From assembly GCA_012295275.1 (NCBI GenBank), contig CM022669.1:14446001-14510000 (forward strand): a stretch of DNA of 64,000 nucleotides, written 5' to 3'. This DNA comes from Chrysomallon squamiferum. Its lineage: Eukaryota > Animalia > Mollusca. A program made the translations under genes and the position numbers. Under the pieces are notes generated by a model. It ran no database searches and was not told the origin of the DNA. It saw nothing but the letters and a program-made list of their open reading frames with translations. Below are positions 1 through 64,000 of this stretch, in pieces (the first letter of the stretch is position 1; each line of letters begins with the position of its first letter).

Positions 1-2128
1 TAGATATAGATTCTAACTATTACTGTTAAAGTTTATTACATTTCAAAATAAAGTGCAAAATTTCAAACACCTTAGTGTGAAAGGTTATAAAACTTAAAAT
101 ACAATTTAAAAAAAATGATGACATTCTTTTTGAGCTTAAATTTGTTATTAGCTATTAAATTTTGCATGAGTTCAACATATTCAAAGACGCAAGAGGAGCA
201 GCTTTTTATCTTTATTATTTTACATTTTTGACATCATCTGTTTGGAATGGGAAAATATGCTATTTTATTGTAATAACCACTATTAATGCATGTATGCATG
301 TTTATTTGTATTAGAGAAATTAATACCTTGATGATAAATTCAAAGAAAAAACATTTAATAAAAATATATATTTTCATGCTTTCCTTTGTTCCTGCTTAGC
401 ATATCCTTTATGCTATTGATAAATTTTACATTTCATACTGCAAAAAGTTCCTGAAATATAGCTACAAATGTTAATTGTTCAGTATAAACAGTCTAAATTT
501 GATCAAGCAAATCTTTCTGTGACCATCCAGGACCCTATTAAGGATTTTTTCCTTCAAATACTATACCCCATTGTTCAACTTGATACTTGTGTCTATATGT
601 TTCTGTCACTCCTTAAGGAAATGATAATGTGTTTTGGCAGTTTAATTGCCTTGTTAATCTTTTTTCAAAAAAATGTTAAAAATCACTAATTTTGATAATT
701 CGACAATAATTTGGCAACTTGTTGTATTATGCATTCTTTGACCCAGGAACCAGTAAAATATATTGTTATTAATTGAAAAAGTTTTCCTCGTTCAACTTGA
801 AGATAATGGAACAATTAAGTATCAAGTATCATGTGATAGCATCAACAGTTTATTTGTTGATCCAGGAAGCTTTTCAAAAAGAAAAATCAGTCTATCTATC
901 TACAGACAGAGAGATAGATAAATACATAGTAATGGAAAGGTTTTTCTACAGCAAAACTGATATTATTCGGCTCAAAGGTGACAATACATTTCCTCTAATC
1001 AAAATACTCCATGCTCTATCAGCCCGTTCATCTTAAAAGTCAGAGCAGAAAAGCTCTTGAGATGTTATTTCTAGTGCTGAAATCATGCCATTATGACCAG
1101 GAGGAAAACAACTCCATCATCCGTTTACACTGAACAATGTGACCAGAGTATCGACCGTCCAGATCACTTAGCATAATCTGTTTACACACAATGAAATGTG
1201 ATTTGCACAGATTCACAGACAAAATGAAAATCTCCTCTCCGAGGTACTTGGCTACTTAATGCAGACCAATTGAACGACTTGTTACAGTGGGAAAATGACT
1301 TGTTCAGACAGCTAGCTTCATGGATACCTCAGTAGAATGTCTGAAAAAACGAAAATGAAAATTTAGTTTGGCCCCCTCTGCCCCCACCCCAAAAAAACCC
1401 CAGAGATAACTTTCTAAAACAAAAATATATTTGAAGTGGAGAAATACATAGGTTTAATGTTATTTTAAATACCTAAAATGTTCCACATTTGACCGTTTTC
1501 ATACTAATTAATATTCCAGTGTTTTATTATTATTATTATTATTATTATGATTATTATTATTTATTTTTTTTGACGTGCCTACACATATTACATTATAAAA
1601 TAATATTTAAGTACATTTTAGAATTGCTGGAATAAATAATTTTTACACTAACTAATATTACAGTATTTTTGGTACTTAACACACACGTACAGTTATTACA
1701 TTATGAAATTACATTTAACCATTCATTTTTAAAATCGATGGAATATATAATTTTCATGCCAATTAACATTCCAATACACTTACGTTATGAATGCGTTATG
1801 TCTGCATTTTGTCATCAAAGGAAATGTGTATTGTGAAAATAAAAGTTAACCAGCAGCATGTGAATGGAATGTCTTATTAACAAGCTGCAGCATGCTGAGT
1901 ACTGCATACTTTTATATTTATTTATTTATTTTTTTAATTTTAATAAAATTTTAATTTATTATATTATCATCATTGTTTTTTTATTTTTTTTTTTTTTTAC
2001 CCTTAAATTGCATTACACAGTGTTTGCTGGCAGTTAGGAGAATGTCTGTTTGGTGTTGTTGTTGTTGTTGTTGTTGTTGTTATGAGCTTTGATTCACCTA
2101 ACAGAATGTCTATTATTGGCTTTGCTAG

Positions 2129-2227
2129 CTCATCCCGGCCGTTTCATCACTAAGTTACTATACCACGGTGATACCTTTGGTCTTTGTGCTGTCCATTTCG
2201 GCCGTCAAGGAAGCAGTTGATGACTTC
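2129..2227 (+). CDS. ATP8B: ATP8B exon variant A (TM1-2 loop + TM2), candidate mutually exclusive exon
   Basis: ttgctag|CTC...TTC|gtaagt; 99 nt; [33 protein letters not shown]; absent from the ORF track. Confidence 0.88.
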
Positions 2228-4691
2228 GTAAGTCAGCTGCCCTAAACAGAGGCAATCTCATCTAACAACACCGGCGAGGCTTTGAGCTGTGTGTTCATAT
2301 CGCTTCTGTGTTAATCGCAAAAACACAACCAAAAAAAAAAAATCTCTCAAGTTTGACAAATGTTTAAAATATGCATGAAGAAGTAAAAGTAAAAACTGCA
2401 TGAGTGTTTTTTTTTATTTTTTTTTATTACCATTATTATTACTGGTTTTTATTATTATTATTATTATTATTGTACATGTATGTACTAATTTCAAAGCATG
2501 ATGGTTTGTCTTAAAGTGACTGTAATGTCCAAAGTTGTGTTTGAAAAATTGGTTATGATGTTTAAACAAGTATGCACAGATATTTGTCAAACATTTAGAG
2601 ATTTTAATAGCACTGTGCTTTCTGTGTTGCATATTTATTTTGTGTTGCAGTATTCATAGTCTGCTGTTATCAATATCTGCATATGCACATGGTTTATAAT
2701 GGATTATGTATACCTACTAGAAATAATCTTAATAAGTTTTATTTATATATAACTGATGTTTAAGCATAAATAGTACAAAATTAATGCATAATAATTAAAT
2801 AATTAAATAAACCACTATAATTATTTGTAACCAGTAATTTTTTTTTATTTTTTTTTTTATTATTATTATTTAAATAAATATATCGCAGAAATATTTGATA
2901 ATGGACCCAATAAATTCTGAAGCATTTTTATAAATATTATAAAATTTATGCTTATCCTGATAAAATTTAGCATGAGAAATGAGAGTCAGGGTATTTTTTT
3001 TTTTCACAAGTGAATAATAAACAAATCCATAACCATGGAATATGCACAAGCCTGATAACTTCAGTAACATAACTCTGACACACAGCTAAAGTTAATGATG
3101 TATTCAGCAAACCAGTTATCAACTGTTACATTGTCACGAAAGGTGAAAACAAAACAAAAATTTATCATCATGATATGAAACAGTGATAGCCCAAGCTTTG
3201 AATGTCAGATTAATTTTAGCTTTGTTATGCTTTTGAACGATATTGCTGTGTCTTTTGCATCACTTTCTTTCAGGTAATATTGTGACACTCTGAAAGCCAT
3301 TATTATTTATTTTTCTGTTCTGTTTTTCATTAACATTTGTGCTTTTATTTATTTAGTTTGACTTTTTCACAGTATTTAGCCTCTACGCATTATTTTTGCT
3401 TGATTTTTTAATTTTCTTTTAATCCACAGATTATGCATCTTTTTTTGCTTTGATCATTAATTTTACTTTAATTATTATTTTAATTTAATTTTGTTTTTAA
3501 TTATCCACCATCGCAAGTTAATTAGAAGCAGGTGAAATCTGACATAGCTTCAGTTTCACAATTTGCTATTAGTCAAAACGTCTACACCTAAAATTTAAAT
3601 TAATTGGCTGAATCAAAAATTACATTTTTGAAAATAATACAAAAAAATATTTTTAGATTTTTAGATTTTAAAATTATTATTTTTAACTTAACTTAACTTA
3701 CAATGGTGGATAATAAAAAAAAAAACCTATTATACACTGAACTTTACAAAAATGTATTTTTTAATTGTACTCAGTTTTATTAAACTAACAACAAGTTTAT
3801 AGTTTTTCAGATTTTCAAAATTAACATTTTTATTACCAAATTTATTTTTCTTTCAGTTTTTCAATTTTTTTTTTTTTCTCTGTCTTTTTATTCCTTTCTA
3901 CTTACTCACCCAACTGAGTAGTACAATAAAAAGTACATATTGTATGGTTGACTGTGTAATTAAATCTTCCGCATTGCCTCACTTTATGATTTCACCTGAC
4001 GATAAATTTCCGTTTTGCTTGTTGCCGATGGTTACAGCTGATGCCCGTCATTTCTTCTTTGACTCCCCTTACCACAGTGATTCCACTTGTTGCTGTGCTA
4101 ACTGTAACGGCAATAAAGGATGCAGTCGATGATATTGTGAGTTACTTTTACTACAAGACAAATTTTTAAATTTTGTGGGTATTTTTTGCGATTATTATTA
4201 AAAAAAATAAAATTTGGTAATTTTTCAATCGTGTTCAGTTAAGAAAAATGACGTAAGAGTCCAATTTTTATTTATTTTTATTATTTATTTATTTATTTAT
4301 TTATTATTGTTGTTGTTATTATTATTGTCATCATCATCTTCTATTTTCTCTTTTTATTACAATCAACAGTTGGTCTTGTGGTTTATTTTTTATTTTCTAT
4401 TTATTTTTCTATTTTGACAGTAAGATTTTTAAGATTGATATCTTGAATATTTCAATTTTTATTTTTTCTAAAACAATTTTTTTATATATTTTTATAAATG
4501 AACTGGGTATGAGGGACTTGCTTAACAATTCAAACTATTTGGTAATTTTATTTTTTCATTAGTGATCCTTTGGGACTTTACTTATTTTTTATTGATTTTT
4601 ATCTTGTTAATGATTGTTTATTAATTTTTTATGATTTGGGTATTTGGGATTAACAGTTATTGGAATTATGTAGTGCATTAATAACTTAAAC

Positions 4692-4758
<67 letters not shown>

Positions 4759-4892
4759 AATAATTATTAATTTATTTTCATCTTTTTTTACTGGTTTCAG
4801 TTTTTATAATTTACTTGTTTATCAACTCATTTATTATTTTGTTCTTCCATTTTAATTATTATTTTAAAACTTTTACTTTTTATTTCTATTAT

Positions 4893-4927
<35 letters not shown>

Positions 4928-5172
4928 CCTCTTAATGACCTGGACTCATGAGGTTTAAAAAAAATTGGGGCATTTTTTTTTTCTTTCTTTCTTTTTAACT
5001 TAAATTTGGAATTTTTATAAAAAATTTAAAAGGAAAATGATTTTAAAAAAACATTAAAAACTGCATCAGGAGACCTAATATCCATTTTCATCTTTTCTTG
5101 GTTATGGAATTTCCTGGTTTCTGCAACATCAACTGAAGGCAAATTACACAGTTTTCAGTTTTGTTTTTAAAA

Positions 5173-5212
<40 letters not shown>

Positions 5213-8200
5213 AAACTGATTTAAAACCTACTAACTTTTCTTCACTTTTTTTATACACTGGATTTTAGAGGGATTAAAGTTTGGTTTTATTTAAAATAAA
5301 ATAAATATTAGATAATCTGCACCACTTTATATAGATGTATAGTTCTTTATATATATATATATTTATTTTTAAAACTATTTCATATACATGTTATTGTTTA
5401 AATTTTCATTATCTAATATTGACAATTAATATTTATTACATCTAGTATTTCTAATGGTAAGCATTTTATGTTGAGAAGTAAATATTTTTGGTTAAGTTGC
5501 AATTTCAGTATGTTTCAAATATTATATTATGCAATTTAGAAATAAATGAAAATAAATAAATATTTATTTTGCTATTTCAAATTTAAAGTCATATCACAAT
5601 AATGAGTAAATGATAATTTCATATTTCTTGTTCATATAATTTTTCTTTCAGTATTTGAAATTATTAATTCATGTTTTTATTTTGCATTTCAAGTTATTGT
5701 TTATCATTTTAAACTTTATGTGTATAATTGTTTTGATGTTGTCTACTTCATTTTTGCATTATTTACTTAATTTAAATTACAAATATTTAAATCATTTTCT
5801 CTAAAATTTAATGAAGTCTTAGCATTAACCATTTTCATTTAGTTTGTGGCATTATAGATATAACAATTTTAGGTCAATGGCATTATAAATATTAAAATAA
5901 TTTTAATGCAGCAGTAATTAATTTTACTTTTTTTTTATGAAATTGCCTCAAGTAAGAATTGTTAAAACAAGGTGTGAAAAATGTTTGTAAGTCCTCAGGT
6001 AGATTTTGATTGAGTGTGCGGCAGTGTTTAACACTGATTAGGACAGAAAGTGCCATTGAGATCCTAGTACATCAATCAGGAAATAAGGGGTAGAGCCAGT
6101 AAACAGTAAATTTTAGTAGTTTCACAGTTTGTGACTAACAAATAACAGATTAAACCAAATTAAAGTATAATTTTTACATTCAGACCATTGCATCATAATT
6201 ATTCAAAATAAAAAAGTACGCACCTGCATGCACTCACACATTCACATTTTGAAGTGTAATCTTTAAATATAAAAAAGTATAAATAAAAATATAATATCCC
6301 ACATCAAACAAACATAGCATTTCAGATTCAAAAATAGTGCAGTTTAAAAGGTAATTTTCTAAATTTAATAACATCATCTACATACATTTTTCACACTTGT
6401 AATTTATATATTATTGAGATATTGGTTCTGTTAATCAGAAATATTTACAAAGTTAAACAGCCACTTTTATGTAATGAAAGATCGTGTAGCACTTTCTACT
6501 GTAAATTAATTTGACACCTTTTTTTTTCATTTCAATACAACAGCAAAGACACAGGAGTGATGATCTGGTTAACAACCGGAAGTCTGACGTACTCAGAGAC
6601 GGCAAACTGGTCTCAGAACGCTGGCACACTGTCATTGTCGGCGACATAATTCGGCTCAAAAACAATGATTTTATTGCAGTAAGTATCTGTTATTTTTAAC
6701 TCAAAACAAAAATAAAAATCTTTCCTTTCTGAGTTTTATTGCAATAAATATTTGTTGTTTTTGATGACGTGAAAAAAAAAAAAAAAAAAAAAAAATTATT
6801 TTTTCTGGTTTATCTGGTTGAATGCTGCTGCCTTATAAATCATTCAGTAAAGATTCCTGGTTGATTTCTATTTCACTCCTTGACTGTATAAATATGGATT
6901 AAAAATACATTAATTCTTAAATAAAATATCTTTCTGAATTACCCGGTTGAATGGTTAACCGTATAATTAAATTATAGTTTGTAAATATGCTCAGAAAATG
7001 ATTGAGCAATATGTTTTTTATTACTTTTTTTTTTTTTTAGTCATTGAAAACAGGTTACCTGTTGAGTTGTTTTTTCTTCTCAACTCTATAAATATTGATT
7101 AAAAATGCATTACTTAAATAAAATACCTTTGTCACTTATCCACTTGAATGGTGCCTTATAATTAGATTATAGTTTGAAAATGTGCTCAGAACATTATAAG
7201 TAATACTTTTTTTTTTCTTTCCAATCATTCAAAACATATTATTTGTTGATTTTTTTTTTCTCCTTGACTTTATAAAATATGGATTAAAAATACATTACTT
7301 CTTAAATAAAATACCTTTTTTTTTTTTTTCTCCCTCCACATATTAATAAATTATTTATTGACTTCATTTGACAGATGATGTGCATACTGAAAAATAAAAT
7401 CAATACTTAATACATCAGACTGGTCTATGACAAATTTTACAAAATTGTTCTGCAGCACACAAACTCTGGTTAAAATAGTTGTGGTTGTTTTTATCAAACA
7501 TTATTAACAAGTTGTTGTGCATGTTACTGAAGTGATGCATCTGTTGATAATTATATATAAATACACACTGAAATGATTAACTGACAAATCTTAAATTTGT
7601 ACACCATAATCCTGACAGAACTGTTGTTTTTTTTAGTGTACAATGGTGATAATATGTTGTTATCAAAGATGTCATTTTGCTTAAAGAAAAACAGTTTTGT
7701 TGTTCAGTTATAAATAAACAAACTACAGGAAAGTAGTCTGTTGACAACCACTAAATCTCTCTGCATCAAAACTCATCTGGATTATTGTTGTTTTTCTGCT
7801 TTCCAGCATTATTATTATTAAGTTGTTTGTTGCCTTCTTATGACTAACACAATTATTACTGAAGGGGTGTATATTTTGACCATTGTAACTAAACATGTAG
7901 TAGATGAAACACACTAATCAAACTGATCTGTTGACAAATCATTTAAAACTGGCCTGTACTAAAAATCAGTCAAGGCTGTTGTTTTTGTTTTTCTCCACTT
8001 CCCAGCATTGTTAATGTATTCTTTGTTATCAGTTTTGCTCGACACTTCGCACATACTGTGTGTGTTCGTGTGTGTGTCTTACTAATCAGGCTGCTGCTTG
8101 ACAAGGAGATGTGTCAGCCACGTTTAGCTGTGCAATCACAAAATGCAATCATTTGTTACTGCATCCTGTGATTTCATTTCCCTCTGCCATGATTAGAAAA

Positions 8201-11200
8201 TGGAAAAACATCCTGAGAAGAACAACTCCTGCATGTACTGATGTAGAGATAACCAGTATTTCACGTTCTCTGAAATAGTGTGTGCATGTTCTTATCCAGC
8301 TTTTACTGTTTACTGACCTTAATTTATATATATATATATATTTATATATATTTTTTTTTTGAATAGGGACAAAGCTTGTTTACATGTTCTTTGTTTCTTA
8401 ATACAGATAGTTGTTTTGTTTTAAAATTGGTGGGATAGAGGTAGTTTTTTAATGTCTTAAACTTAAAGTGAAAATTGTTGTTGATTGGTCATTCATTACG
8501 TCTTTTTAGAATCAGGACAGGACTATTAACCTGAAAAATTGTTCTTATTCATTTTCTTTTTAAATATTTTAAAATCTGGCCAGGACTATTAACCTGAATA
8601 AGTGTTCTTAAATTATTCATTATCTTTTTAAATATTTAAAAATCAGGACAGGACTGTTAATTACAAATAATCAGTATTGATCTTTTTTTTTTTTTTTTTT
8701 TTTTTAATTTATCTTGACTAGGTCTTACAGGATTTGTTTAGTTTGTCCACTCTCCAAAGACATCTGTTACAGCTATTGATCATCTATTCTGCATCTTTTG
8801 TTGTTCTATTTATTGCATTTAGAGTGAACTAGTTTTAAGACTTGTTTTTCAGATATGATATGTCAATACCCTTAATCGGGGTTTATTTGTTTATTTTTAA
8901 TTAAAACAAGTAGAAGCAATAGTAGCACTGTTTTTATTTATTTATTTATTATTGTTGTTGTTTGTTTATTTTTTTTTTTTTTTATTTTTTCATTTATTTA
9001 AAACAGGAAAGCTACAAGATTAGTATGTTTGTTTCAAAATACTTTCAACACCTCAATTATTTGTTATTTTTCATTTAATTCTTCTTTCTTTCTTTCTTTT
9101 TGAAAACTAACTAAATAAAATAAATAAAAAGTTAAAATTGAAAGCAACATCAACAAAAATGTGAACAGAATTAGTTATTAAAGTCTTGTTTAATTTGTTT
9201 ATCCATCAGCTCAATTAACAGATGCAATGTTATTGAATTATTATTTGTTTTTCATTTTTTATCATTTTGTTTTCTATTTTCTTTTTTTTTCTTTTTTCTA
9301 CTGTGTTATCTATTTCTAAATGTAATTATAACTTTCTGATTATTCATTCATTGTTAGAATCTTTTTAATATTAAAAAAGAAAAATACAAATACAGAATTA
9401 GTCCTGTGACACCTTTTCAATGATTTTTTTTTCTATTCTGTAATGTTTTTAATTATCTATCTATCTATCTGTATATCTGCTTGTTTTGTTTGTTTTTATT
9501 TTATTTATTTTATTTTAATTTTAATTTAATTTTATTTTATTTTAATTTTGTTTTAGTTTATTTTATAATTTAATTTAATTTTATTTTTTAATTATTTACT
9601 TTATTTTATTTTATTTTATTTTATTTACTAATTTATATGCATACTAATTAATTAATTTTTATTTGTATCATGCCTTCATTTTATTATTTTTTATTCATTC
9701 ATTTATTTATTTATTCATTCATTTACATATTCATTCCGTCATTTAATTTATCTATGTATTTATAAAATCAGACAGAAGCCAGATTTGCACATCTGTATTA
9801 TTTTTACATTCACCATGACAGAACTAATTTTACAAGTCAGATGAAAAGAGGATATTTTTGTTTGAAACATAAGTAGTGTATTTGCATAAAGATTCAAGGA
9901 CTGTTACATGAAAATGAAAATAAGTAAGAAAGAACACTGCATGTTAATGAGTTCAGATTATGGAAATAATTAGTATTTAAAAACAGAAAAATGATTATCT
10001 TGTATAACATCAAAATGATTAATCAGGTCTAAATAATAGTAGTATGTGAAAATGATTACAAGAAAATATGAAAATAATTAGTTTCAGAACATGAACCCTG
10101 TGATGATTGTAAACATAAAAAACAATTATGATTGTAAACATAAAAAACAATTATGATTGTTAATATGAAACAATTTCTGGTTGTAAACATGAAAATAATA
10201 TTAACAGAATTTTAAAACAATTTAAAAAAAACAACAGAATCTGCAGTATAAACTTTAATGAAGCTATTTTTTACTGGAAACCAGCACCAGAATTATCATT
10301 AATTTCTGTTTGTTATTCTCAAAGGATTTTATAAATTAATTATAAATATTATGTTTTATGTCTTTAATGATATTAAAATGCTACATGTGTTTTTGTGCAC
10401 CTGTCTACATGCATGCATGCAAGATGTTGTTCTGTGTTGAACGACTTTAATTGTTGTAAGTGGGATTTTATTTCTTTCATAGGCATTTTATTAAACCTCT
10501 TGTTTTATTGTGCATATAGAATGCCTGCACATTCACTCATATCCATACATAATTATATGCATATAGATATACAAAAGCAATCACATTCAGACATACATAC
10601 ATACATACATATATATATATATTTTTTTTTTTTTACTTTAAAAAAAAAAAATTTAAAACCAGAATGTAAATATTTTCAGTTAACTGTATTAATTCTTCAT
10701 TCGTATAAACATGGCAACATTTCAGAGTGTGATCTGTTTTGATTAATTTCAAGTTACTTCATTAGTCTGTTGACTCTTGGTAAAACCAAGACGTTTCATT
10801 ATTAACGATGATTTAAGTCTGTTTGAGCTGACGTTGCCAAGAATTTCTTCTCTTTTTAAACAAGTTAAATTGTTTTTCTCTATTGTGCAGTTTATTGTTT
10901 CTGAAAGCCTACTGCTTGTTTGTTTTTCATTACATTTTCTTCAACTGGCTAGAAAAAAAATATATTGTTTATTTGAATGGAAAAAAAAAAGCCTCTTACT
11001 TTTTTCTTTTTTTTTTTTCTTTGTTTAATTTGAACACAAATATAACAGGGAAGTCATTTTTCTTCTTCTTCTTTTTCTTTTCTCTTCATTTATTTGTGGA
11101 AAATTGTCAGGTGAAAGCTATTTTTGAGGTTTAGGAGCAGGGAAGAGGATTTTTTTTTTGTGATTTATTTATCATCCGAAGGTTAGGATGCCTGTTTCAG

Positions 11201-11493
11201 TATAACCAAAAGTACAGCCATCTGTTGCGTAATTTCACTGTGTTGTGTAGACTTTGTTGTTGAAGAAACCACTCGGATATTTTCCTTCATACAGTTCTGG
11301 CATTCATGTCACAAAGTTCCAGCAGAAAACAAAGTAATCAACTCAATCTAAGGGCAGATCTTTGGCTTGTTGACAGGGGGTGGTGGTGTCTGTATATATT
11401 TTTTTTTTTTTTTTTTTTTTTTTAATTTTATTAAAAGAAAATGACCTGTAATTTTACATTATATTTGGTATACTGTTAAAATTTAATATTATA

Positions 11494-11524
<31 letters not shown>

Positions 11525-14500
11525 AATCCTTGAAATTAAATGTTATTAAGCAGGACAAGGAGACCTGTAAGAGCTCTCTTGATAGACCTGCCGCTGAAAT
11601 CTGTGTGAGAGAATTGATTTCCTTCAGCTCAAAGGATCTCTGACAAATAAAAGCAGCACTGTTCTGCAACCTGCTTCTCGAACATCACAATGAAAATCAG
11701 AGAAACAACAAAAGCTGTGGCCATGTTTCCGCACAGTGTTATCAATGCAAGACCTTGTTTATTTCACTCCCAGGAGACCCCTGGGTTCATTAATCAATTA
11801 GGCAGACCAATAACATTATTTTATATCAAGTGAAGTCAGCTACATCAGAAGCAGCCAATGTGGAGATGTATCCACTGTGCATGACAGTTTCCATCAAACG
11901 TTGTCATTGTCATTCCTGAGTCATGTTTGATGCTTTGATTTGTTACTCTGATTGATCTCTAAATGAAATTACAATGACATTTAATTTAGATTATTGACGT
12001 AATCATAATAAATAAATTTGTGATCTCATTCAGGAATGAATAATATCTCATTATCTTAGTCTCTGTTGAGGTTTTTTTTTTTTTTTTTTTGGGTTAATCC
12101 TGCTAACCCATAAAGATCTCTCTATCCATTTGGCTGATCATATGTAGATTTAGCATTTGATTTAACTACTGAACTATTTCTTAATATCTGTCTGACTAAA
12201 TCTTGAATGATGGAGCATAAAATGTTTAGATTTATATCTGTGTTCATTTGTCTGGAGTTCTGTAGATTTGGTCTTTCCTTAAAGATTGTCTTGTGTTTGA
12301 CTTCCCAGTTTGTTCAGATAAAAGATAGCAGTGAAAAATTTAGATTTTCTTTAAATAAAAGTAGACTTAATTTCTTCTTTAAATATTTACATCAAACTGC
12401 CTAATTCATCGATATAAAATATATCTCTGTGCCTTTGATTTTGAGGGTATTTTTAAGCATTTTGAATATAATTCTTCTTCCTGATATAGTGTATCATATA
12501 TGTATGATGGTTTTAAATTTATTTTTCCATTTGAAAACAAAAATATGTAGACCAACAGTTGAAGCCAAAAGTACAGGACCATCTGAATAATTTCAATTAA
12601 AATAAAAACAACAACCAAGAACTATTCCCTGGACAGTTCTTCTTATTCAACAACATGTACAAATATTACTTGATATGTGGGGTAAAAAACAAAACAAAAG
12701 GACTTGAGCATTAAAATTCTGGTTGTAGGAGGAAATAACTCAATAATACATTTTTTTTATTAGCCTTTGTGTAGCTAATAAAAAAAATGTATTATTGAGT
12801 TATTTCCTCTTACAACCAGTGTTTCTCAACTAACCATGGGAAATGTATAATATGTCAGGTTTTTTTTTTGTTGTTTTTTGTTTTTTTCTTCTTCTCACTT
12901 TGTATATTTGAATCTAAAAGGCCCTTTGCTCTTTTTATTAGAAAGAAAACAGAGCATCTTTCTTTTTCTTCTGAAGACAACAGAGTCAATAATATAAAAA
13001 TTAAACAGACTATGTTCATTCATAACAAAAATAGAACCGTTGAAATGAAACCAGGGATTCTCACTTATATTCTGAAGAGACAGTTTGGTCAGGTCTCAGT
13101 ATTACTTGGTGACAGTTCACAGTTTTTTTGTCACTTATCAAGTAAATTACCTTTGTTGTGTTTTTTAGGCAGATCTGTTTCTACTGTCCACCAGTGAACC
13201 TAACAGCTTGTGTTACATTGAAACAGCTGAACTGGATGGGTAAGTGATTTTTAACAGACTACCAGCATGTTAGATTATATATTACTTAATCTGTAAAATC
13301 TTAAAATGTTTTAGCAAGGCTGGAGTTAAATTGTAAACTTTGTTTTAATTTATTTTGTTTAAATTTAATTATTAAGAAATGATTTCTATGTATAATAATA
13401 ATAATAATAATAATAATTTATTTTAATTACATTTATTTCCTTGTATATGATATTTCTTTTCAATTTTCTTTTTTAGTTAATATTTTTTATATTTTTAATT
13501 GCATTGCCAGTGAAACCAACTTGAAAGTAAAACAAGCAATACCAGAAACAGCCAAAATGGGAGACAACCATGAAGAAATGAGTTTGTTTAATGGTATACT
13601 CGCAATTTAATACCTTTCAGCTGTCTTCATTTTAAAAAAGTGGAAGTGATGATTTTAAAATTGTTTTGCAAAACAGAATCATTTAGTCTAAACATGATTC
13701 TGATTATAATGAAAACCTTGCATTCAGAAATTACTCTAAGAATCATTTCATTATTACCATGTTAAGAAATTCATAAATGTATATATTTAGTAATGTCAGA
13801 TGTTTCTGAAAGAGTAATATTAAGTAATAACAAGTTACATTTTATGCTTTGGTGTAAAATATGTGACCTTATGTATTCATGTGTCTGTGTGTGTGTGATC
13901 CTGGTATGTCTGTATGTTTTATATTTTACATGGATCAATCAATGCACATGTACAACTGAGTTGGTTTATGAATTTGTGTGTTTGTATGCGTGAGAAACTA
14001 TTATTAACGTTACATATTTTGTATTAACTGAACACTTAATTAAACGTAACGGTATTTCACATTACAGCTGAGATCGTCTGCGAAGCCCCCAACAACAGAC
14101 TGAACAAGTTTGAAGGGAAAATGACGTGGCGAGGCAAGACATACGCAATCGACAACGACAAGATTCTTCTCCGTGGCTGCGTGCTGCGCAACACGCAGTG
14201 GTGTTACGGTCTCGTGATATTCGCCGGGCTCGACACCAAGCTGATGATGAACAGCGGGAAAACCACTTTCAAACGCACACACATTGATCGCCTTATGAAC
14301 CTTCTGATCATTGGGGTTAGTCTTTTTTATATATATATATAACTTTATATATTTTTCTTTTTGTTTCAGAGTTAATCTTTTGTCGATAATGTGATCCATT
14401 TTGATTATGATTTTAATTTTTTTTTTTTTTTCCAGTTTATTAAATAACAGTGTTACAGTATTATAGAAAATAAAGTATGTAATCGTTTTTTAAGATGCTA

Positions 14501-15284
14501 AAGAGATTTTTCATATATTTTTTTTTTTTTTTTTTTTTTTTTACATTTTATGGTAATTCAATAATAGTAATAAACATCACTGGATTGTTAAAACTCATGT
14601 CAACTAGTATATGTTAATTTTCCGTTGATACACTTAACATCATACCATCATGTTAGCATCAGAAATGTTTTGATACAATTTATAAATACCACATTTAACA
14701 TTTATTTTTTTTTTTCTTCACGATTTTCAGATTTTTCTCTTTCTTCTAAGTATGTGCCTAATCTGTACCATAGCCTGTGGTATATGGGAGTCGTACACTG
14801 GCAGTAACTTTCAGATTTACCTTCCTTGGGAGGACTTTCTGAATCAGGACACAGAAAGAGGTTCAGCAACCATTGCTGCGCTTGTGTTTCTGTCCTACAT
14901 CATCATTCTGAACACTGTTGTGCCTATATCACTCTATGTGAGGTGAGCACATTCAAAGCTTTGCCACAATGTGATATTTCCACATTCTGTACTTTGTCAT
15001 TATGTGAGGTTAGCCTTGTCGCATAGCACGAAGTGAAGATATAATTAGAGTTTTCTGATATTTTTCATTTTCTGGAATCTCGATAATTGGTCTGATATCT
15101 GTAAAAATAATTGTCATCTTAATTCTTCCTGAATTCTCTTTTGTCTCTCTTTCATTGTTTAAAATATTATTATTATTATTATTATTAATTTATTTTTTGG
15201 GGTTTGTTCAGAACTATTTGCTGTCAACCACATGACAAATACAGTTAATTAAATATTTCCCATTTTAACAAATTATTATTAATA

Positions 15285-15343
<59 letters not shown>

Positions 15344-18167
15344 CGTACTTTCAGGTTTCTATATTACAATATTTATTTACTGTTTTCAGTGTTGAAATAA
15401 TCCGTCTCGTGAACAGTTACTGGATCAACTGGGATGTCAAGATGTACTATGAGAAGAAAGACATGCCAGCCAAAGCTAGGACAACTACACTGAATGAAGA
15501 GCTTGGACAAATAGAGTACATCTTCTCTGACAAAACAGGAACACTGACTCAGGTAAAACACAATTACTACTGTACACACCTGTAGGTAGTTATGCAAACA
15601 GGTATCATTTATTAAAACACCTGTAATCAACATGTTGATAATAAAATGTAATGTCAGACACATAAAGACCTATCAAGGTATATTTATTATGTTGAATGGA
15701 GATCTTTTAACATGAAATAGCGATTTAAATCTATAGATGGATTTCGTTTTTTAATTTAAATTTAATGCAGATGTGGGTTTTTTGTGATTATTTAAACATA
15801 GCTGTGTTTGTTTATTTAAACATAATATATATTGTTTTGTGTTAGTTTACACATAATATAGCTAATTTATAAATTTATTTAAATATATAGCTGTAATAGG
15901 TTTGGTATTAATTTAACAAAGCATAGCTAATATTTCAGTAATTATTTAAACATAAATCTGGTTGGGGTGCTGTTGATTTATTATAACAATTAGTGTAGTT
16001 ATATTGGTTTGTGTTTATACAAACAGAACTAAATTTCTTCTGTTTAAACATAATACATCAATTTGTAAATATAATGCTTTTATTTGGGTATATTTATTTA
16101 CAGTTTTTGTAACATCAGAAACACAGACATTCTGTATTTAAATTTCAGGATTTAAATTTCTCAGTGTCAGTGAAAATCTTTTCAGTGCGCATTTGAACTG
16201 TAGTAAAATCATGTTGCAAACAGGCATGAAATCTGTGTAACATGTGCTATTTACACACTTTATTGAATGCCTTGTTAGACAATATAGCATTTGAATATTA
16301 ATCTCTATTGGTTATTTTGTCTTCCTTTGTAATTTACCATGAGTGTGTGTGGGGGTGGGAGTGGGAGTGGGAGTGGGGGTGTGTGTGGGTGTGGGTGTGT
16401 GTGTGGGTGGGTGTGTGTGGGTGTGTGGGTGGGTGTGTGTGTGTGTGAGATAATGAGTGAGATAGCAGGAAAGAGAATTTTTAGAAGTAAAATGAACAGT
16501 GGGTTTATGTAAGAAATGTGTTAATGTTTGTGTGTATAGCTGTGCATGTATATGCATGTATATGTATGTATATAATTTATATAATATGAAGATCTTGTTA
16601 TCTTTGATCATAGTAAAGGAAGCCAAACTTGTCAACAGCTGCAGGCATAACTATCCATTAAACCTTTTAAATAAGAAAGTAAAAAATTAAGATTTATTAC
16701 CTTTGCCTTGACCTACTTTTTGTAACACATTTGTGGGTGCCAGATATCTGTGCTTTTTATGTGAAAAGATTAATATAATTTTAACAAAATATGAATGATC
16801 AGAAATATAAAAACAATAATAATAATTACAGCAGCAACAGCAGCAGTAGTAGTAGTAGTAGTAGTAGTAGCGTTACAGTAGTAGTAGTAGTAGTTTCTTA
16901 AGGCATTAGTAATAATATTTTTTTATTTATTATCACTACTACTATTACTTATTCCACTACTACAGCAACTACTACTGATACTACTGCCACCACCTTGCAT
17001 TAACAACCACTATTACTAGTTCTGATTAGTACCAATACTGCTATCTGTGCTTTTATCAGAATCTGTTAAGATTTAATAACTGAACCAATACTTATTGTCA
17101 TGTCACTTTTTTATAATAAATATAATATTAAAATTTATTTCAGAAATATCTTTTTATCCTTTTATTTTATTTTTTTTTTTTTTTAGCTTTTATTGACTAT
17201 TACCTAGATCACTATAAATTGCTTCTCACAAATAAGAAAGCACTTTTCTTGTCATAGATAAAATACTTTGTGTAGTACTGTTGGAACTGGAAATAACAAA
17301 AACGGACTGAATTGTGTGTGTGTGTGTGTGTGTCTGTGTCTGTTATTATTAATTTTAATCCTCTGGCTTGCAGACATACACATTATAAAACAAATCTTAT
17401 AAGAAATCATGATACTGGAACTTGCTCATGTTGTTTTCAGAATATAATGACATTCAACAAAGCATCTGTAGGTGGTAAAGCCTATGGGGATCCAGTTGAT
17501 GAGGACGGCAATATTCTTGACTTCAGAGTGAGTAAACTTGTACTAAGACATTATTATTATCATTATTATTATTATTATTATTATTATGACAATCTCTGTT
17601 AATGGATTAAGGATTGATTAATTTATATTTTATAAACTGTTTTCATTCTATTGTTGAATGGGGTTTTTTTTTTCATTATTTCTTTCTCTTGATGTATTTA
17701 TTTGTTGTTTTTATTTATGCATTTTAATTTTTTTTTTTATATTTATGTATTCATTGTTATATTTTTTTTTTTTTTTTTGTAATAATCCTTTTATTACTAG
17801 ATATACTGATTAATGTAATGTTTTAATGAAAAAAAATGTTTGTGGGTAGTAATTTTATATATTACAAATAATATAAATATAACTTTTATTATTTATTTTT
17901 TCATATAGATAATAGAGTTGTAGTGATTTTGTTGTAAAGATTATGACAAAAATAGATGAATCTTAGACATAATCAATAAGTCTTTTTAGAAGTGGATAAT
18001 TGAATTTTATTTATCATGAAAAATAAAGAACCAGTGAAAAGAGATTTTTTTTTTTTAAGTACACAAACTTACATTTTTGTTATATTTTAATTTTCAGTAC
18101 TGATAATAAATTCAGAATTTAAAAAAATAATTTAAGTTTAATTTTTTATAAAGACTGAAAATGTAAA

Positions 18168-18258
<91 letters not shown>

Positions 18259-18917
18259 GTTTTGTCCATTACTGGATACAAAATTACTACAGTAAAAAAA
18301 GAAATAATAATTATATAAATAAATAAAATTAAAATAATTTTCTTTTTTTTTTCTCTCTATATATAAAACTATCAATTATCAATCTTGTCAACTTATTTAT
18401 TATTTAACACATTATGAAAATGTGAGATCTCTTTTCTTTTCACAGTGCATGTCGAACATAGATTTTTCTGTCAACAATCCTTACAGTGAAGACACTTTTA
18501 TGTTCTATGACCCCAGACTGCTTACTGAGGTGAATGCAGGAAACCCAGATGCAAAAAGGTTTTTTAAAATTCTTGCCCTCTGTCATACTGTTATGCCAGA
18601 GAAAAAAGAAAATGGTAAGTAATTAATTTATGTATGTTTTATATTAAAGTGTTTCATTTTTTGTGTGATAAAACTATATAAAATAATTTTTTAAATAAAG
18701 TTTATCATTGGTTAAATGATAATTGTAGTTCTAATTAAGTATAACTTTTCACAGGTATAATTTTCCTCTTTTTTATATTTTTTCTTTAATTTTTTATTAG
18801 AAACAAAGTAATATAGATATTTGTATCATATAATTAAGAAATATAGATTAAATTTAGTATTGAATATAGATAGATAGATAGAGAGCATGATTTCCAGATA
18901 GATAATAGATAGACAGA

Positions 18918-18951
<34 letters not shown>

Positions 18952-20510
18952 TAGATAGATAGATAGATAGATAAATCAACAAAGAAAGACACAACATATA
19001 TAGACTAGTCAGTATTTAAACTTCAATATAAAAGATAAACATACCTTGAAAGAAGCTTTATTTAAACTGGCTTAAAAGAAACAGGTGAAATAATTTTTGG
19101 TGGATGTGGAAAATAAGTTTTTAATGTTTGTGTAAATAAAAATAAGTTTATAATGTTTGTTGTTGTTGTTTTCACAGGTAAGTTAGAGTACCAGGCTCAG
19201 TCACCTGATGAAGGGGCTCTTGTGTCAGCAGCTAGAAATTTCGGATTTGTTTTCAAGGTAACTTTTTTTTATTTTAAAACTTTAAAAAATACATATTTAC
19301 AACAACAACCAAAAAAATTAAATAATATATATATATATAAAAATGAAAAAATAAAAATAAAAAATAACATAAATAATAAAAATAAAAATTAAATATAGTT
19401 TCAAAATCGAGATAATAGTTCATCTTAAAAACAAAATAATGTTTTAAAATGTTTTAATAATTTATTGAATCACCATTCTTAGAAATTACCTGTGTGTAAA
19501 ACAGTTAATATTCACAACACTGAAAGCAACTTACATATATAATCTATAAATATCAGTTTACAAATTTTATATTTTTATTATTTATAATTTTTTTTTAAAT
19601 TTATTTATTGCTAATCCATTATTTTATTCATTTATATAAGAGAATTTTATTCTTTTAATATTGATTTATACTTTTTCAATACATTTCTGGCTTAATTATT
19701 ATATTTCGTTATTAATATTTAATTTCTTTATTAATGAAAAAGAATACTGATATATTTTTTCAGTAATAACAGAAATATGTTTCATTTTATTTATCCTTTT
19801 ATTTACTTATTTGTTTTTTTTTGTTTTAAATTTAAATTTTTTTTTTTTTTTTTTTTTAATGTTGCTGTAAATTAGTTTAAGTTACAATATTATTTTATTT
19901 CAGTCTCGAACTCCAGACACTATAACAATTGAAAGTAGAGGCAAAGAGAAAGTGTACGATGTTTTGTGCATTCTTGATTTTAACAATGTCCGTAAGCGTA
20001 TGTCTGTAAGTATTTTTTTATTTAATACATTACTTAGTTGTATAGGGATCATATTTCTAACTGATTTCAAAACATAGATGGTTGGTTCATGAATGTATGA
20101 AGTCTTGTTCAGTAAAGTTTATTGAAATTTTCAATAAAATAAAAATACATAACAGTCGAAAGGATGAAATATTAAATTTATTTTCTTGTTAATGGAACTT
20201 TAAAATAACAAAAAGATAATCACCAGACTTTTCTTATGTATTGTAGGGTGGTTGTTTTTTTTTTTTTTTTTTTAAATCTTTCATTTTTAAACAAAATTTT
20301 TAGTTATTATTATTATTTTTATATTTTTTATTTTATTATGTTATTAGGTTTTTTCTTTCTATATATAAAAATGTTATTTTAATATTTTTTTAAATTATTT
20401 TTTATGTTATATTGTTGATATTTTGGTCAGAAATAGGTTTTTATTATTAATTTGTTTCCTATATCATTTTTTTTTTTTTTTTTTTTTTTTTTAATGTTGT
20501 TGTTGAATTT

Positions 20511-20608
<98 letters not shown>

Positions 20609-23600
20609 TTTTATAAATAATTAAATTTAAAATGAATCAACAGGTGATAGTGAGAAGGAAAAACAAAATCAGATTATACTGCAAGGGAGCCGACTCTGTT
20701 ATCTTTGAACGTTTGGATCCCAGCTGTAATGAACTGGAAGAACTCACCATGCATCATTTGAATGTATGTGTGTCGGCTGTATTTTCTACATTTTGTAATT
20801 TTAGTGTTTTAGGTTTGATTTGTACTGTCACTAAACTGTAGCCGAATTCTTTATGTGCTTTAAAAATATTTATAAGTTCAGTCTGTTTTGATAAAGAAAG
20901 AATTGCTAAAGGTTATTGAATAATTCATGAAAATAATTACACTATGAAGTATAATTTTGAAAAGTTATTAAACTTTGAATTTTATTAATGTTCTTTACCA
21001 TTATAACATAATTACCTGGATGTGTGTGTATATATATATATATATATATGTGCTGTTGAGTTTTTATTATACAAATAAATAAGATCACTAATAAAATTAA
21101 AAGTTTAATAACTTTTCAAAATTATACTTTATAACGTAATTATTTTGATGAATTAGTCAATAACTTTTTGCAATTCTTTCTTATCAATATGGACTGAATT
21201 TATATATAAATATAATGTGTATGTCTACAAGCCAGAGGATTAAAATTAATAATAACACACACAGACACACACACACACACAATTCAGTCTGTTTTGTTAT
21301 TTCCAATTCCAACAGTACTGCACAAAGTATTTTATCTATGACAAGAAAAGTGCTTTCTTATTTGTGAGAAGCAATTTATAGTGATCTAGGTAATAGTCAA
21401 TAAAAGCTAAAAAAAAAAAAAAAAAAAAAAAAAAATAAGGATAAAAAGATATTTCTGAAATAAATTTTAATGTTATATTTATTATAAAAAAGTATATATA
21501 TATTTGTGTGTGTGTGTGTGTGTGTCATAAATGTTTGATTTGTATCTACCATTACAACATAATTACCTGGATGTGTATTTTTGATTTTTAGGAGTTCGCA
21601 CAAGAAGGTCTCAGAACATTGTGCCTTGCCTATAAAGACATTAAACCAGCTGAATTTGAGACATGGAAAATGAAACATCATCTAGCTAGGTTAGTGGTGG
21701 GGTTTTTGCAAAATACTGGCCTGACTGCATTTCTTAGCAAAACAGTTTCTTAATTTTATTCATCAATAGTCAAATTCTTAATTTTATTTATCAAATGTAA
21801 GAGTCTTAGTTTTTTTATTCATCAGTTGTCAAATTCTTAATTTTATTTATCAGAAAACAACAGCGGATTGTCATACTTATTTACCACAGTTAGTGATAGG
21901 GATCATTTAACATTAACAGTTTCCTGCATTTTTATTATTTCTCTGAATATCTGAGATTATATTTTTTCTAGCAAATAAATAAAAATATGTCGACAAGTTT
22001 TTTTTACATTTTTATTATTTTTATTATTTTCTATTATGCAGTCAGTGTTTTTCAATATTTTCATAAATATTCTGAAATATTTTTAGCATTACCAAGATAA
22101 ACAACATAATAAATCTGTTACTTTCTAACACTGAATCAGTGGGGCTTCAGATTTGTTATGAATATTTTGAAATATTTTTAGCATTAACCTGCATGTCCAA
22201 CGATAACTCTAAACATTTTTTTATTAATTTCTGTAAATGCAGTAAACTGTCAGTGGATTTATAAGTATTTTTAGGAATATTTCTATGTGTTTTAGTATTA
22301 CTCTGGAAAACCGTGATGATCAGTTGGATACTTTGTATGAAGAGATAGAGAAAAACCTTATTCTGGTTGGAGCCACTGCAATAGAGGACAGACTTCAAGA
22401 TGGCGTTCCAGAAACTATTGCTAATCTGTCACTGGCTGGAATCAAGATTTGGGTGTTAACCGGTGATAAACAAGGTTAATACTGCATTTTAAAGACACAT
22501 CCAAAATCTACAATAGTATATTTAAAATGTGACTTTATCCTTAATTCATTGCTGTGTTCTTGAATTATATCCTGCTTGTAATTATTTTTAATATTATCCC
22601 ATTCTTTAATTATCTTTATCATTATTTTACATCTTAGTTATCTTGAATAATAATGTACCTTGTGACCTTGTTTTTAGTTATTGCTATCTTTCTGAATCTA
22701 GTTATTTTGAATTTCATCTTCTCTGTATTTATCTTGACTATTATCTCACCTATATTATCTTGAATTTTAACCTGTCTGTAACTGTAATCATCTTGAATTT
22801 CTTCCTATCTGTATTTATCTTGAATTTGTATTTTACCTGTTTTTATATATCGTGAATAGTGTTTATCTTATATGCATCTTAGTCATTTTTTAAATATTAT
22901 AAAAGTTAAAAGTGACAAAGATGTAGTTTTTCCTTTTATCTTCTTATTTATAAGTGTGTGTGTGTCTGTTTGTGTGTGTGTGTGTGTGCATCAATTATTC
23001 CTGCTCATTGCTAACAGTAATGAAATTTTATTGTATAGGAACTGCTGGTTACTACTAATAATGAAATTTTATTGAATAGGAACTGCTGGTTACTACTAAC
23101 AATGAAATTTTATTGAATAGGAACTGCTGGTTACTTCTAATGATGAAATGTTATTGTATAGAAACTGCTGGTTACTTCTAATGATGAAATTGTATTGTAT
23201 AGGAACTGCTGGTTACTACTAATAATGAAATTTTATTGAATAGGAACTGCTGGTTACTACTAATAATGAAATGTTATTGTATAGAAACTGCTGGTTACTT
23301 CTAATGATGAAATGTTATTGTATAGAAACTGCTGGTTACTACTACTAATGATGAAATTGTGTTAATACAGAAACTGCTATCAACATCGGCTACTCCTGCC
23401 GACTGCTAACTGAGGACATTGAGGAGTTGTTTATCATTGATGCTGAAACAATGGAGGATGTTGAAGAACAGCTGGTGTCTGCTCTAAAACTAGTAGAGAA
23501 CTACAAAAGCAGCAACTCAGACAGTAATGTTATGTGCAATGGTGACGCTCATTTTAATTCTGCGGACGGTGTTACTGTTAGCTGTGAAGAAAATCCGGAG

Positions 23601-25681
23601 TATGCCCTTGTTGTCAATGGTCATAGTCTGGTGAGTGTTGACAAATATTTTTATTTGTATAATAGTGTTCATTTTTCTGGTTTTTAATAATTATTATTTT
23701 TTTTTTTTTTTTCTTTTTTTTTTTTTTTTTGTAACTCATTTGTTATTTTTACTTGTGTGATAGTGATAAGTTTTTGATTTATTTATTTTTCTATTTTCTA
23801 TTTTTGTAGAACTCGTATGTTATTTTTTTATATATAATACTAAAGTGATTTTTTGGATTTTTTTATTATTATTAATTTTTTTATTTGTATAATTGTATTA
23901 TTTTTTGTTTCTGTTTATTTTTTCTTTATAACTCATTTCTTATTTTTATTTGAATAACTGTTATTATTTATTTTTTATGTTTATATTTTCTTTGCAATTC
24001 TTTTATTTTTACTTGTATAATGGTGTTATTTTTATTTATTTCTGTTTATTTGTTTGATAACTCATTTGTTATTTTCATTTCTATAATACTTTTTTATAAA
24101 ATATTTAATGTTTGACCTTTTAATCAAAAAAATCATTTTATTAGTAAATCATATTTTCAAATGAATATAAGTAATTTTTAAAATCATAAATATTGAAATT
24201 TTATTCAATGCATTTTAAAATTCTAATGAATCTGTTGCATTTTTGAATGAAAGAAAAAAGTGACTTGAACAAATAATTAATATATATATATGTGTATTTT
24301 TTAACAGGCGTATGCTCTGAAGCCCGAATTGGAAGGTTTGCTTGTTCAGCTAGGGACAGTTTGCAGGTCTGTGATCTGTTGCCGGGTAACGCCACTGCAG
24401 AAGGCTCTTGTTGTCAACATCATCAAGAAACACAAGAAATCCATCACATTAGCAATAGGAGACGGTGCCAATGATGTCAGCATGATTAAAGGTATATCAC
24501 AGTTTTTTTTTTTTTTATTTATTATTATTTTTTTTTTCCTTGATGAAGTTTTCTCAGTGGAGTATCAATAATTCTTAATTCTGATCACTTTACACCAATT
24601 TAGTCATGTATATAGATCTCTTGCACTGATAATTTTATATTTTCTCCACTGGCCTATTTCCCGTTCCTGCATGAGCTGCAAGACTTTCAATATGCTTTCC
24701 TACCCATGGGAAAGCTACACATAAAATATTTCTTTTTTTTTACTGTAAATGAGAAATGAAGGTAGTTTCTACTAAAGACATTATTTCATTCATTTTGATG
24801 AAACAGGCAACAGAGAAAATTTTATTCATTGGCTAATATTACACATTATAAATATCTGTTACTTCACAAACTTGGAGCATGTATCTCGTATTATTTCCCA
24901 CTTTAACTGCTGTGAAATTAAGATGCAAAATGGAATAAATCGGACAAATATGCAACTGATATATAACTACAGTAATTTTAATAAATGATTTTTTTTTTTT
25001 TTTTTTTACCAGTCATGCATATAACATGGGTAGTCATTTTTATAAATTAAAAATGTGTGTGTTTGTTATTTCAGCGGCGCACATTGGGGTGGGTATCAGT
25101 GGGCAGGAGGGTATGCAGGCTGTCCTGGCCAGCGACTACGCACTTGCACAGTTCCGATACCTCGAACGTCTTCTTCTTGTCCACGGCAGGTGGTCTTATT
25201 TCAGAATGTGCAAATTTTTGAGATACTTTTTCTACAAGAATTTCGCTTTTACCTTGTGCCATTTTTGGTATGCCTTTTTCTGTGGATTTTCTGCCCAGGT
25301 AAGATGTATTTCTTTTTTAATTAAAAAAAAAAAATGACTGTGAATAAAATGAACATGTTGTATATGATTGTAGTGTGGCAGATTTTGTTTTTTGTTATTG
25401 TTATTGCTGCTGCTGCAGTAAGTATGGTTATTATTACGTGTTAATTAATTTATAATACAGAATAAATTATTGCTAGAAAGTGATGTAAGCCAAATGTGTT
25501 TATGTATTGTATTTTTTTTTTTTTTTCTTTTTTTTTTTTTTCTTATACAAGAAATTTTAAAGTTCATTATATTTCTGTTGCAGCCTTTGTTTGATCCAGA
25601 TTTGTTTTTTATTTTGTACAAAATTTAAATAAAAGTATATTTTATTATTATTAAGATTATTGATTATTATTATTATTTATA

Positions 25682-25725
<44 letters not shown>

Positions 25726-26900
25726 TTCATCATTATTAAATTTAATGGTTTTTAAATTATTATTACTATTATTAATTAAGTAAATAATAATAATGATAAT
25801 AATAATTTTTATTAATATTCATATTCATATTATTATTATTATTATTAAACATAAAATATTTCTATCTGACACTTGTCTGCTCCATCATAACATTTGTCAA
25901 GTCTTCATTATTATAGAGTTTTTTTTTAAATTTTAAATATGTAAATGCTAGTGTTAATTCTTTTTCAGACTTTGTATGATCCATTCTTCATTTCTTTGTA
26001 CAATGTCTTCTACACATCATTACCTGTCCTTGTCCTAGGAATATTTGACCAGGTAACTGCATTGTTATATATAATATCTCAACAAAAAACAAAATCATAC
26101 AAATTTAAAAATAGAAAAGAAATAATGAATGTATAATTACGACATTTATTTTATTTTACATTTCATTTTTCTTTTTTTCTTTTTTTTTTTGAGGGGGAGC
26201 TATTTCTGTAAACAACATATTCTCTTTGTACAGCATAAACAACAGATATATTTCATTTATAACTTTCAATCTTCAAATTTAAAAAAAAAAAATGTTCTTG
26301 TTATTTATTTCAGGATGTAGACGAAGATCATTCTCTCCGATATCCAAAACTGTACACACCAGGCATGTACGATGACCTGTTCAACAAGAAAAAGTTTCTC
26401 TTCAGTGTTGGTGAAGGTATCATAACCTCATTAATTTTATTTTTCATTCCTTACTGGACTTTCCTCAGTGGTGTAGGCTCATCTGGTATGGGAGAAGATG
26501 ATCTGCAGTCGTTTGGTACCTACGTAGCAGCTATTCTTGTGGTCTCTGTCAATTTGAGGGTAAGAGATGTTCCTTAAAGCATTTCACCCAAAACATCCGT
26601 ATTAAACTTGTTACTTTCATATTGTATTTTGCTGTTTCTGTATTAAGTTTATTATTGTCATGTTAAACTTATTATCGTTATGTTGAGAGTATTGTTTTCA
26701 TACTGCATTTCGTTATTTCTATATTATATTTTATTATTTCCATGTTAAGCTTATTTCCATATTGTTATTCTCATGATCTTTGAAAAGTGAATTTTGGTTT
26801 AAGATAAAAAAAAAATAGAATAAAAATTAACAAATAAACTTTTGAATGATGATAATTAAATTTGAAGTGTAATAAGTGTATAGTAAAACCATATTATACA

Positions 26901-26937
<37 letters not shown>

Positions 26938-45202: not shown

Positions 45203-45237
<35 letters not shown>

Positions 45238-63734: not shown

Positions 63735-64000
63735 CTGCGAAAATAAATAGCACATGCTTTAATTTATTAAATGAAAAGATATTCATGTTACCATGACAAT
63801 GATGCTCTCATTATGTTTATACAACAGTCATTTTCCATTATATCTTAACTCTTCTCAGTCATAAAATACGATACAGAATTAAGTTTGAACTAAAAATCAC
63901 ATTATAAGATATTTATAATATTTACTCAGTCATGGAAACCATTTATTGAACTTAAAAATTATCCTATTTTTTACTGAAAGCAAAAGATTATATGACTGTT

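Follow-up and report, generated by a model that had tools for sequence, protein, structure and literature searches.

An ancient, RNA-supported pair of alternative exons in the lipid groove of an ATP8B-class flippase gene of Chrysomallon squamiferum

Can a lipid flippase exchange part of its lipid groove by alternative splicing, and what would such an exchange do to lipid transport? The question is raised by a stretch of 64,000 nucleotides from Chrysomallon squamiferum (the window), in which two tandem copies of one exon (A and B) encode the TM1-TM2 loop and TM2 of a P4-ATPase. A sequence-only reading of the window had proposed that A and B are splice variants of the groove-lining segment, with A of the PS type and B of the Dnf1 type. 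The splicing is upheld by RNA contigs; the direction given to it is not, as TM1 and TM4 are shared by both forms. The pair is real, RNA-supported and ancient, and encodes part of the lipid groove in an ATP8B flippase of molluscs.

Gene structure, splicing and exon choice

On match scores, rather than on a whole-family tree, the gene is assigned to the ATP8B class of the P4-ATPases, closer to ATP8B than to ATP8A, ATP11, Drs2 or Dnf1. Its exons in the window match residues 70-1201 of an ATPase ID-like protein of Gigantopelta aegis (P0003), the nearest full-length relative; the exons for residues 1-69, including the one directly upstream of A and B, precede the window start. P0003 reaches bit scores of 1247 with ATP8B1, 921 with ATP8A1, 851 with Drs2 and 772 with Dnf1, and carries the PhoLip_ATPase N and C domains (Pfam). 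The motifs DKTGT, DGET and PISL are present in exons of the window. Relatives are named ATPase ID in the source records, i.e., they are ATP8B2-like. The last coding exon (27139-27678, +) is 80% identical to the Gigantopelta aegis protein, has a G+C content far above the remainder of the gene, and includes a GYAFS motif resembling the regulatory tail of ATP8 flippases (motif: PMC11775268). A tandem repeat of ~40 nt at about 23030-23345 (+) reaches the acceptor of the exon at 23371. Neighbouring genes encode a pyroglutamyl peptidase (PF01470; 41464-42817, -), an oligoribonuclease-like RNase_T exonuclease (about 44500-46930, +) and a protein with FDF plus YjeF_N domains (about 60470-63760, -), which we take to be EDC3-like.

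Table 1. Features of the ATP8B-type gene and its exon pair (window coordinates)
Feature	Position	Strand	Basis
ATP8B-type P4-ATPase gene	1..27678	+	stop 27676-27678; exon map against P0003
Branch-point-like motif ahead of exon A, CACCTAAC	2095..2102	+	
Alternative exon A (TM1-TM2 loop and TM2, 33 codons)	2129..2227	+	AG/GT, phase 0/0; RNA contigs
Intron between copies A and B (1810 nt)	2228..4037	+	GT-AG; sequence
Branch-point-like motif ahead of exon B, CACCTGAC	3993..4000	+	
Alternative exon B (33 codons)	4038..4136	+	AG/GT, phase 0/0; RNA contigs
Downstream exon common to A and B (start of A-domain linker)	6544..6678	+	RNA loose ends, tblastn
Common exon, TM3 end and TM4 (N at Pro-4, PISLY; selectivity determinants)	14731..14943	+	
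Common exon with DKTGT phosphorylation motif	15390..15552	+	
Common TM6 exon	25969..26052	+	

Both copies are 99 nt long and agree at 20 of 33 residues and 63 of 99 bases. Among the 20 positions with the same residue the codons differ at 14, so the exon duplication is old. Counted from the exon start, A and B differ at positions 4-5 (AV/VI), 9-11 (SYY/TPL), 24 (S/T) and 28 (E/D), as the sequence-only reading had listed, and further at positions 2, 19, 22, 23, 26 and 33, absent from that list. Exon B equals isoform X1 of Gigantopelta aegis at 33/33 residues. A six-frame scan of the 64-kb window gave no third copy.

Elsewhere in the gene, a likely decayed copy of the TM6 exon was observed at 25584-25621 (+), with an intact acceptor and an early stop; its local alignment score of 47 exceeds the maximum of 39 reached among 1055 background windows. 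In the nemertean Lineus two versions of the TM6 exon are annotated (P0049, P0188). Given this decayed copy and the two Lineus versions, a second groove exon, that for TM6, may once have been alternative in this gene.

RNA was taken from four runs of a single study, as assembled contigs only, placed on positions 1-4300 of the window. A 157-nt contig spans exon A in all four runs, and another of 157 nt spans exon B in two of them, B being present as shorter pieces in the other two. In run X4 the 5' loose ends are the same for A and B, and so are the 3' loose ends, which equal the next exon (6544-6573); three of the four such ends were seen in run X3, among the loose ends listed. Each copy is joined to the same upstream and downstream exons in the RNA contigs, and the pattern is that of two alternative exons between common neighbours. 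No joint between A and B was seen among the three joints listed, but rare forms are lost from contigs; moreover, both copies stand in tandem in 9 of 226 stored public proteins, RefSeq isoforms among them. For these two reasons mutual exclusivity of A and B is likely rather than proven. Double inclusion would preserve the reading frame. Contig depths of A and B are similar within each run and cannot rank the forms.

As to the choice between the copies, steric exclusion is ruled out by the length of the intron between them, and a frame check by the 99-nt length of the exons. Pairing of a docking site with selectors was likewise rejected: the two branch-point regions can both pair with a site near 3526 (-13.6 and -17.9 kcal/mol), but at background level, the best common partners of blocks elsewhere in the window ranging from -12.9 to -15.9. 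A repeat scan for pairing elements returned mostly low-complexity DNA. Both donors are GT with a U2-type consensus. The motif CACCT[AG]AC stands ahead of both copies, 31-42 nt from the acceptor, and is absent from 6700-27700; CTRAC was found within the last 50 nt at none of 19 constitutive acceptors. In related metagenome loci CACCTAACTA is retained in the intron between A and B (9 of 12 compared regions), and TGCTAAC also stands ahead of B. The RBFOX-type motif TGCATG is not enriched around the exons, with two occurrences against 1.7 expected (P 0.52). CTAAC, presumably a STAR-family site, occurs five times against 1.45 expected (P 0.016, uncorrected for six motifs and with the branch motif counted in). 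As steric, frame and base-pairing explanations fall away, tissue-specific splicing proteins likely set the exon choice and would act near the consensus branch points.

Occurrence of the exon pair in molluscs and other animals

Annotated instances of the pair come from gastropods, bivalves and cephalopods. Comparison of isoforms of the same length confined the differences to the 33-residue block in 16 of 19 cases; of the three exceptions, two are Octopus pairs with further differences at the N-terminus, and the third is a Lineus pair in which the TM6 block alone differs. Mercenaria isoforms likewise differ in the 33-residue block only. The order A then B is fixed in eight genera, represented by the window and by tandem gene models of Littorina, Pomacea, Crassostrea, Pinctada, Argopecten, Dreissena and Argonauta. 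For pairs without a known order the labels were assigned by similarity, so the A/B tree is partly circular. In this tree, built on 40 rows and 33 columns, a single change suffices to separate 15 A copies from 16 B copies, and none of 500 shuffles was as low; the branch has support of 85/91, is not starred, and occurs in 86% of 200 bootstrap trees. The tree is consistent with one duplication before the split of the three mollusc classes.

Further copies were observed in some lineages. Four versions of the TM2 exon are present in Lineus longissimus (P0188, P0191, P0192, P0193) and three in Dreissena (P0025, P0222, P0225). All four Lineus variants group with the B copies in the tree, which suggests separate expansions for these multiples. 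In Babylonia areolata the A-type P0018 and the B-type P0022 lie on different contigs and may be two genes, with one version retained or annotated in each.

A pattern scan of metagenome contigs yielded 51 loci, of which 49 have an exon with the same borders and 12 have two tandem copies, two of these 12 loci being one and the same sequence. All 12 two-copy loci have an aromatic residue at position 10 upstream and Pro downstream, and position 19 is mostly small in both copies. Locus L022 is nearest to bivalves and the other two-copy loci form one related group, without a placement in a small reference set; the 12 loci therefore count as about two lineages. In eleven of them (L005, L007, L014, L015, L016, L028, L031, L038, L039, L046, L049) the upstream copy starts with Ser and the downstream copy with Leu, so that in that group the swap reaches into the TM1 motif, which is QQ or GA in the flippases studied, and alters its second residue.

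Of 14 further isoform sets, 13, from arthropods, Lingula and Tubulanus, have a single annotated variant; the exception is the bivalve Mercenaria. With regard to annotated copies, all 11 arthropod isoform sets hold one variant and no exon pair, and a search with the cricket TWV variant gave 100 new matches, each with TP[VI] and none two-copy. An aromatic residue instead of Pro10 was observed in single exons of Gryllus (P0291), Tetranychus (P0240), Brevipalpus (P0300) and Chamberlinius (P0285). The Pro/aromatic change recurs in scattered arthropods without a known duplicate.

Alignment with known flippases and the differences between A and B

Exon positions 9-32 align ungapped to Dnf1 239-262 of S. 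cerevisiae, with 10/11 at 240/241, 24 at T254 and 28 at D258. This bears out the register assumed in the sequence-only reading; for positions 4-5 (234/235) it is extrapolated from the offset of the same alignment. Dnf1 of C. thermophilum aligns ungapped over 2-32 and has I-F at positions 4-5. Positions 2-32 also align to Drs2 239-269, to ATP8B1 133-163 (the best PDB match of exon A) and to 95-125 of an ATP8A1 construct, the numbering of which is 5 ahead of the native one according to the spacing of V103/P104/F107. Position 0 is Dnf1 G230 and ATP8A1 Q88, and position 19 is ATP8A1 Phe107. The lipid path of flippases has been outlined with two gates (PMC5732287, PMC11460456). In Dnf1 the exit site is formed by T254, K257, D258 and E261 and the hydrophobic middle by L247 and I250 (PMC7773333); these are exon positions 24, 27, 28 and 31, and 17 and 20, respectively. 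The Dnf1 register is supported by positions 17, 27 and 31, at which both copies have Leu, Lys and an acidic residue, respectively. In none of 16 mollusc pairs do the copies differ at 20, 27 or 31, which are gate and exit positions.

On a helical wheel oriented by the groove residues of Dnf1, position 24 lies at 10 degrees and 28 at 50 degrees from the groove axis, 19 at 130 degrees, and 22, 26 and 33 at 150-170 degrees. Whether the differing residues face away from the groove had been named as a check on the sequence-only reading, and the answer is divided: 22, 26 and 33 do face away, while 24 and 28 face the groove, the only differing TM2 residues to do so, both with conservative changes. An AlphaFold model of a Haliotis A isoform is of low confidence (mean pLDDT 57, with about 50 or less in the membrane part); its loop at 69-79 and helix at 80-112, with the exon at 70-102, agree with the expected topology.

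Sixteen mollusc pairs were compared by position, with Babylonia dropped and Mercenaria added. The steadiest differences are position 19 and the loop lid at 9 and 11. Position 19 differs in 16/16 pairs, being Phe in 12 A copies and in no B copy, where it is Ala or Val; positions 9 and 11 differ in 15/16. The B loop is nearly fixed as T-P-L. The A loops vary (SYY, TPV, SPV, NPV, EPV, PWY) and form no single conserved motif: an aromatic residue at 10 or 11 occurs in 7/16, and x-P-x, with Pro10 kept, in 9/16. Position 24 is S/T in nine pairs, T/S in four and the same in three. Position 28 is E/D in six pairs, Glu28 being found in 6/16 A copies and 0/16 B copies. The set Y11, S24 and E28 occurs in one of 16 A copies, that of Chrysomallon squamiferum, and the A copy of its nearest relative reads TPV in place of SYY.

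Possible effects of the exon swap and their significance

The reading that we favour, with modest confidence, is that the swap would retune the shape of the groove (acyl fit, breadth, rate) rather than switch between PS and PC. A and B would differ in the loop (9-11) that closes the outer end of the groove and at residue 19 of the acyl pocket (Phe versus Ala or Val), and, depending on the lineage, the exit site (24 and 28) would also be altered. The ATP8B headgroup site would be left unchanged, and lipid preference or kinetics would be shifted. As the main headgroup contacts in TM1, TM4 and TM6 are common, both forms would keep the ATP8B-type substrate range. These assignments draw on ATP8A1, in which Phe107 is reported to line the pocket for the acyl chain, activity varies with acyl length, and the outer groove end is closed by the M1-2 loop, which does not contact CDC50 (bioRxiv 10.1101/666321); the last point weakens a role of the loop in assembly. 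The broad range of ATP8B1 has been attributed to the spacing of TM1-2 versus TM3-4, not to headgroup contacts (PMC10657443), a simulation describes one lipid entry route near the TM1-TM2 loop (bioRxiv 10.1101/2020.06.24.169771), and small changes along the lipid path are reported to alter preference (PMC7939387; PMC11536178). The wheel angles of 19, 22, 26 and 33 count against retuning of the groove, as do the A loops, which share no motif and keep Pro10 in more than half of the copies.

Both forms could instead flip the same lipids, and the swap alter turnover, stability or the fit to a tissue or organelle membrane. Four of the seven differing TM2 positions past residue 16 face away from the groove (22, 26, 33 and, less so, 19), in agreement with such an effect, and TM1-2 is described as a mobile unit tied to the A-domain, so cycling could change (PMC10657443; bioRxiv 10.1101/666321). 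The steadiest differences, however, lie in the named acyl pocket and the lid loop, and the lack of CDC50 contact by the ATP8A1 loop also speaks against this reading, which is possible and, in our judgement, rather unlikely.

A splice switch between a PS-preferring A, like Drs2/ATP8A, and a PC/PE-preferring B, like Dnf1, is improbable. Reportedly, the exchanges T254A and D258E in Dnf1 favour PS transport in yeast mutagenesis, and I234/F235 and P240/G241 are said to be implicated in substrate selection. The Chrysomallon squamiferum A copy does match ATP8A1 at 11 (Tyr), 19 (Phe) and 28 (Glu), and its B copy matches C. thermophilum Dnf1 at 10, 24 and 28; Glu28 is exclusive to A copies. Positions 24 and 28 belong to the Dnf1 exit site (PMC7773333), and in ATP11A a single change at the exit site can be enough to add transport of PC (PMC11536178). 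The motifs xYTT with SAxKE and Pro with TAIKD had been taken as opposed types, but ATP8B1 itself joins AWYTT with TAIKD. The full A set stands in a single pair, the polarity of position 24 is inconstant among the molluscs, and all 12 two-copy metagenome loci have position 24 reversed and Asp28 in both copies.

The shared parts of the protein also argue against such a switch. The residue with the strongest effect on PS transport, the TM1 Gln (PMC12424579), is encoded at the very end of the shared upstream exon, and both copies have Leu at position 1. Isoform A has this Leu in place of the second Gln of the QQ pair of PS flippases (register to ATP8A1 Q88/Q89 and Drs2 237/238 by offset). TM4 is common to both forms, with N at Pro-4 and the sequence PISLY, in which Tyr corresponds to Dnf1 Y618; T254 and D258 act coupled to Y618 according to a review, and ATP8A2 has Leu at this place (PMC4937031). 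Isoform A thus carries Tyr where a PS flippase would have another residue. Dnf1-type PC/GlcCer flippases are marked by GA in TM1 and Gln at TM4 Pro-4 (PMC7773333, PMC12424579), and isoform B has Gln-Leu and Asn. With shared TM1 and TM4 determinants, the joint motifs of ATP8B1 and an unstable polarity across pairs, the PS/PC reading is weak; it overweighted motifs peculiar to Chrysomallon squamiferum.

That the copies are interchangeable leftovers of an old duplication is very improbable: a single copy suffices in the arthropod, Lingula and Tubulanus sets with their one annotated variant, but both copies are open and spliced across three mollusc classes with class-wide differences such as Phe19, and a useless copy would be expected to decay, as the likely TM6-exon copy in the same gene did.

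Mutually exclusive exons are a known kind, and an instance in a flippase groove was not found described in the literature searched. The closest counterpart is exon 4 of NKCC2 (SLC12A1), the tandem copies A, B and F of which (96 nt, against 99 nt here) also encode TM2 and the adjacent loop; the affinity for ions differs between its variants, and a double-inclusion form (AF) is also known (PMC2790964). NKCC2 is an ion cotransporter of the vertebrate kidney with measured effects, in contrast to a lipid flippase of molluscs, in which the loop concerned is an outer one. Ancient homologous mutually exclusive exons are enriched in membrane transport genes in a set that covers human, fly and worm genes, and the main text and one supplement of that study name no ATP8, ATP10 or ATP11 gene (PMC9741552). 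Human ATP8B1 and ATP8B2 (class 1b P4-ATPases) resemble the present gene, ATP8B1 being the best solved-structure match and the relatives being ATP8B2-like; an alternative TM2 exon in either was not found in the literature searched. Ding et al. (2000) are said to report four isoforms of ATPase II (ATP8A1) and to address activity and phospholipid specificity; the ATP8A1 splice variants are reportedly cytoplasmic. To our knowledge, neither ATP11C nor ATP8A1 variants swap a groove helix. Splicing diversifies a flippase in ATP11C-a/b as well, where, unlike here, the variants differ in the C-tail, which changes location and regulation (PMC11775268). No prior description of the flippase exon pair was found among open-access papers searched by title and abstract opening; A/B isoforms are already in RefSeq as automatic models.

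The reported substrates of the ATP8B class differ between studies (PMC12424579). At least 16 mollusc genera supply natural pairs of proteins that are identical except for one 33-residue groove block, and such pairs permit a direct test of the contribution of the TM1-TM2 lid and TM2. They direct attention to the ATP8A1 Phe107 position and the loop, neither of which has first place in the yeast headgroup model. Should the two forms differ in lipid preference, this would be a splice-controlled change of membrane asymmetry, not found described for any flippase in the literature searched. Tentatively, molluscs and some other spiralians may alter the lipid choice of ATP8B tissue by tissue via the groove exon, so that one gene would cover the range of several vertebrate ATP8B genes. 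In the case in which this is true, the swap of some lineages, with Ser/Leu in the metagenome loci, would reach the second residue of the TM1 motif, and the second alternative exon of Lineus (TM6) would permit combinatorial grooves.
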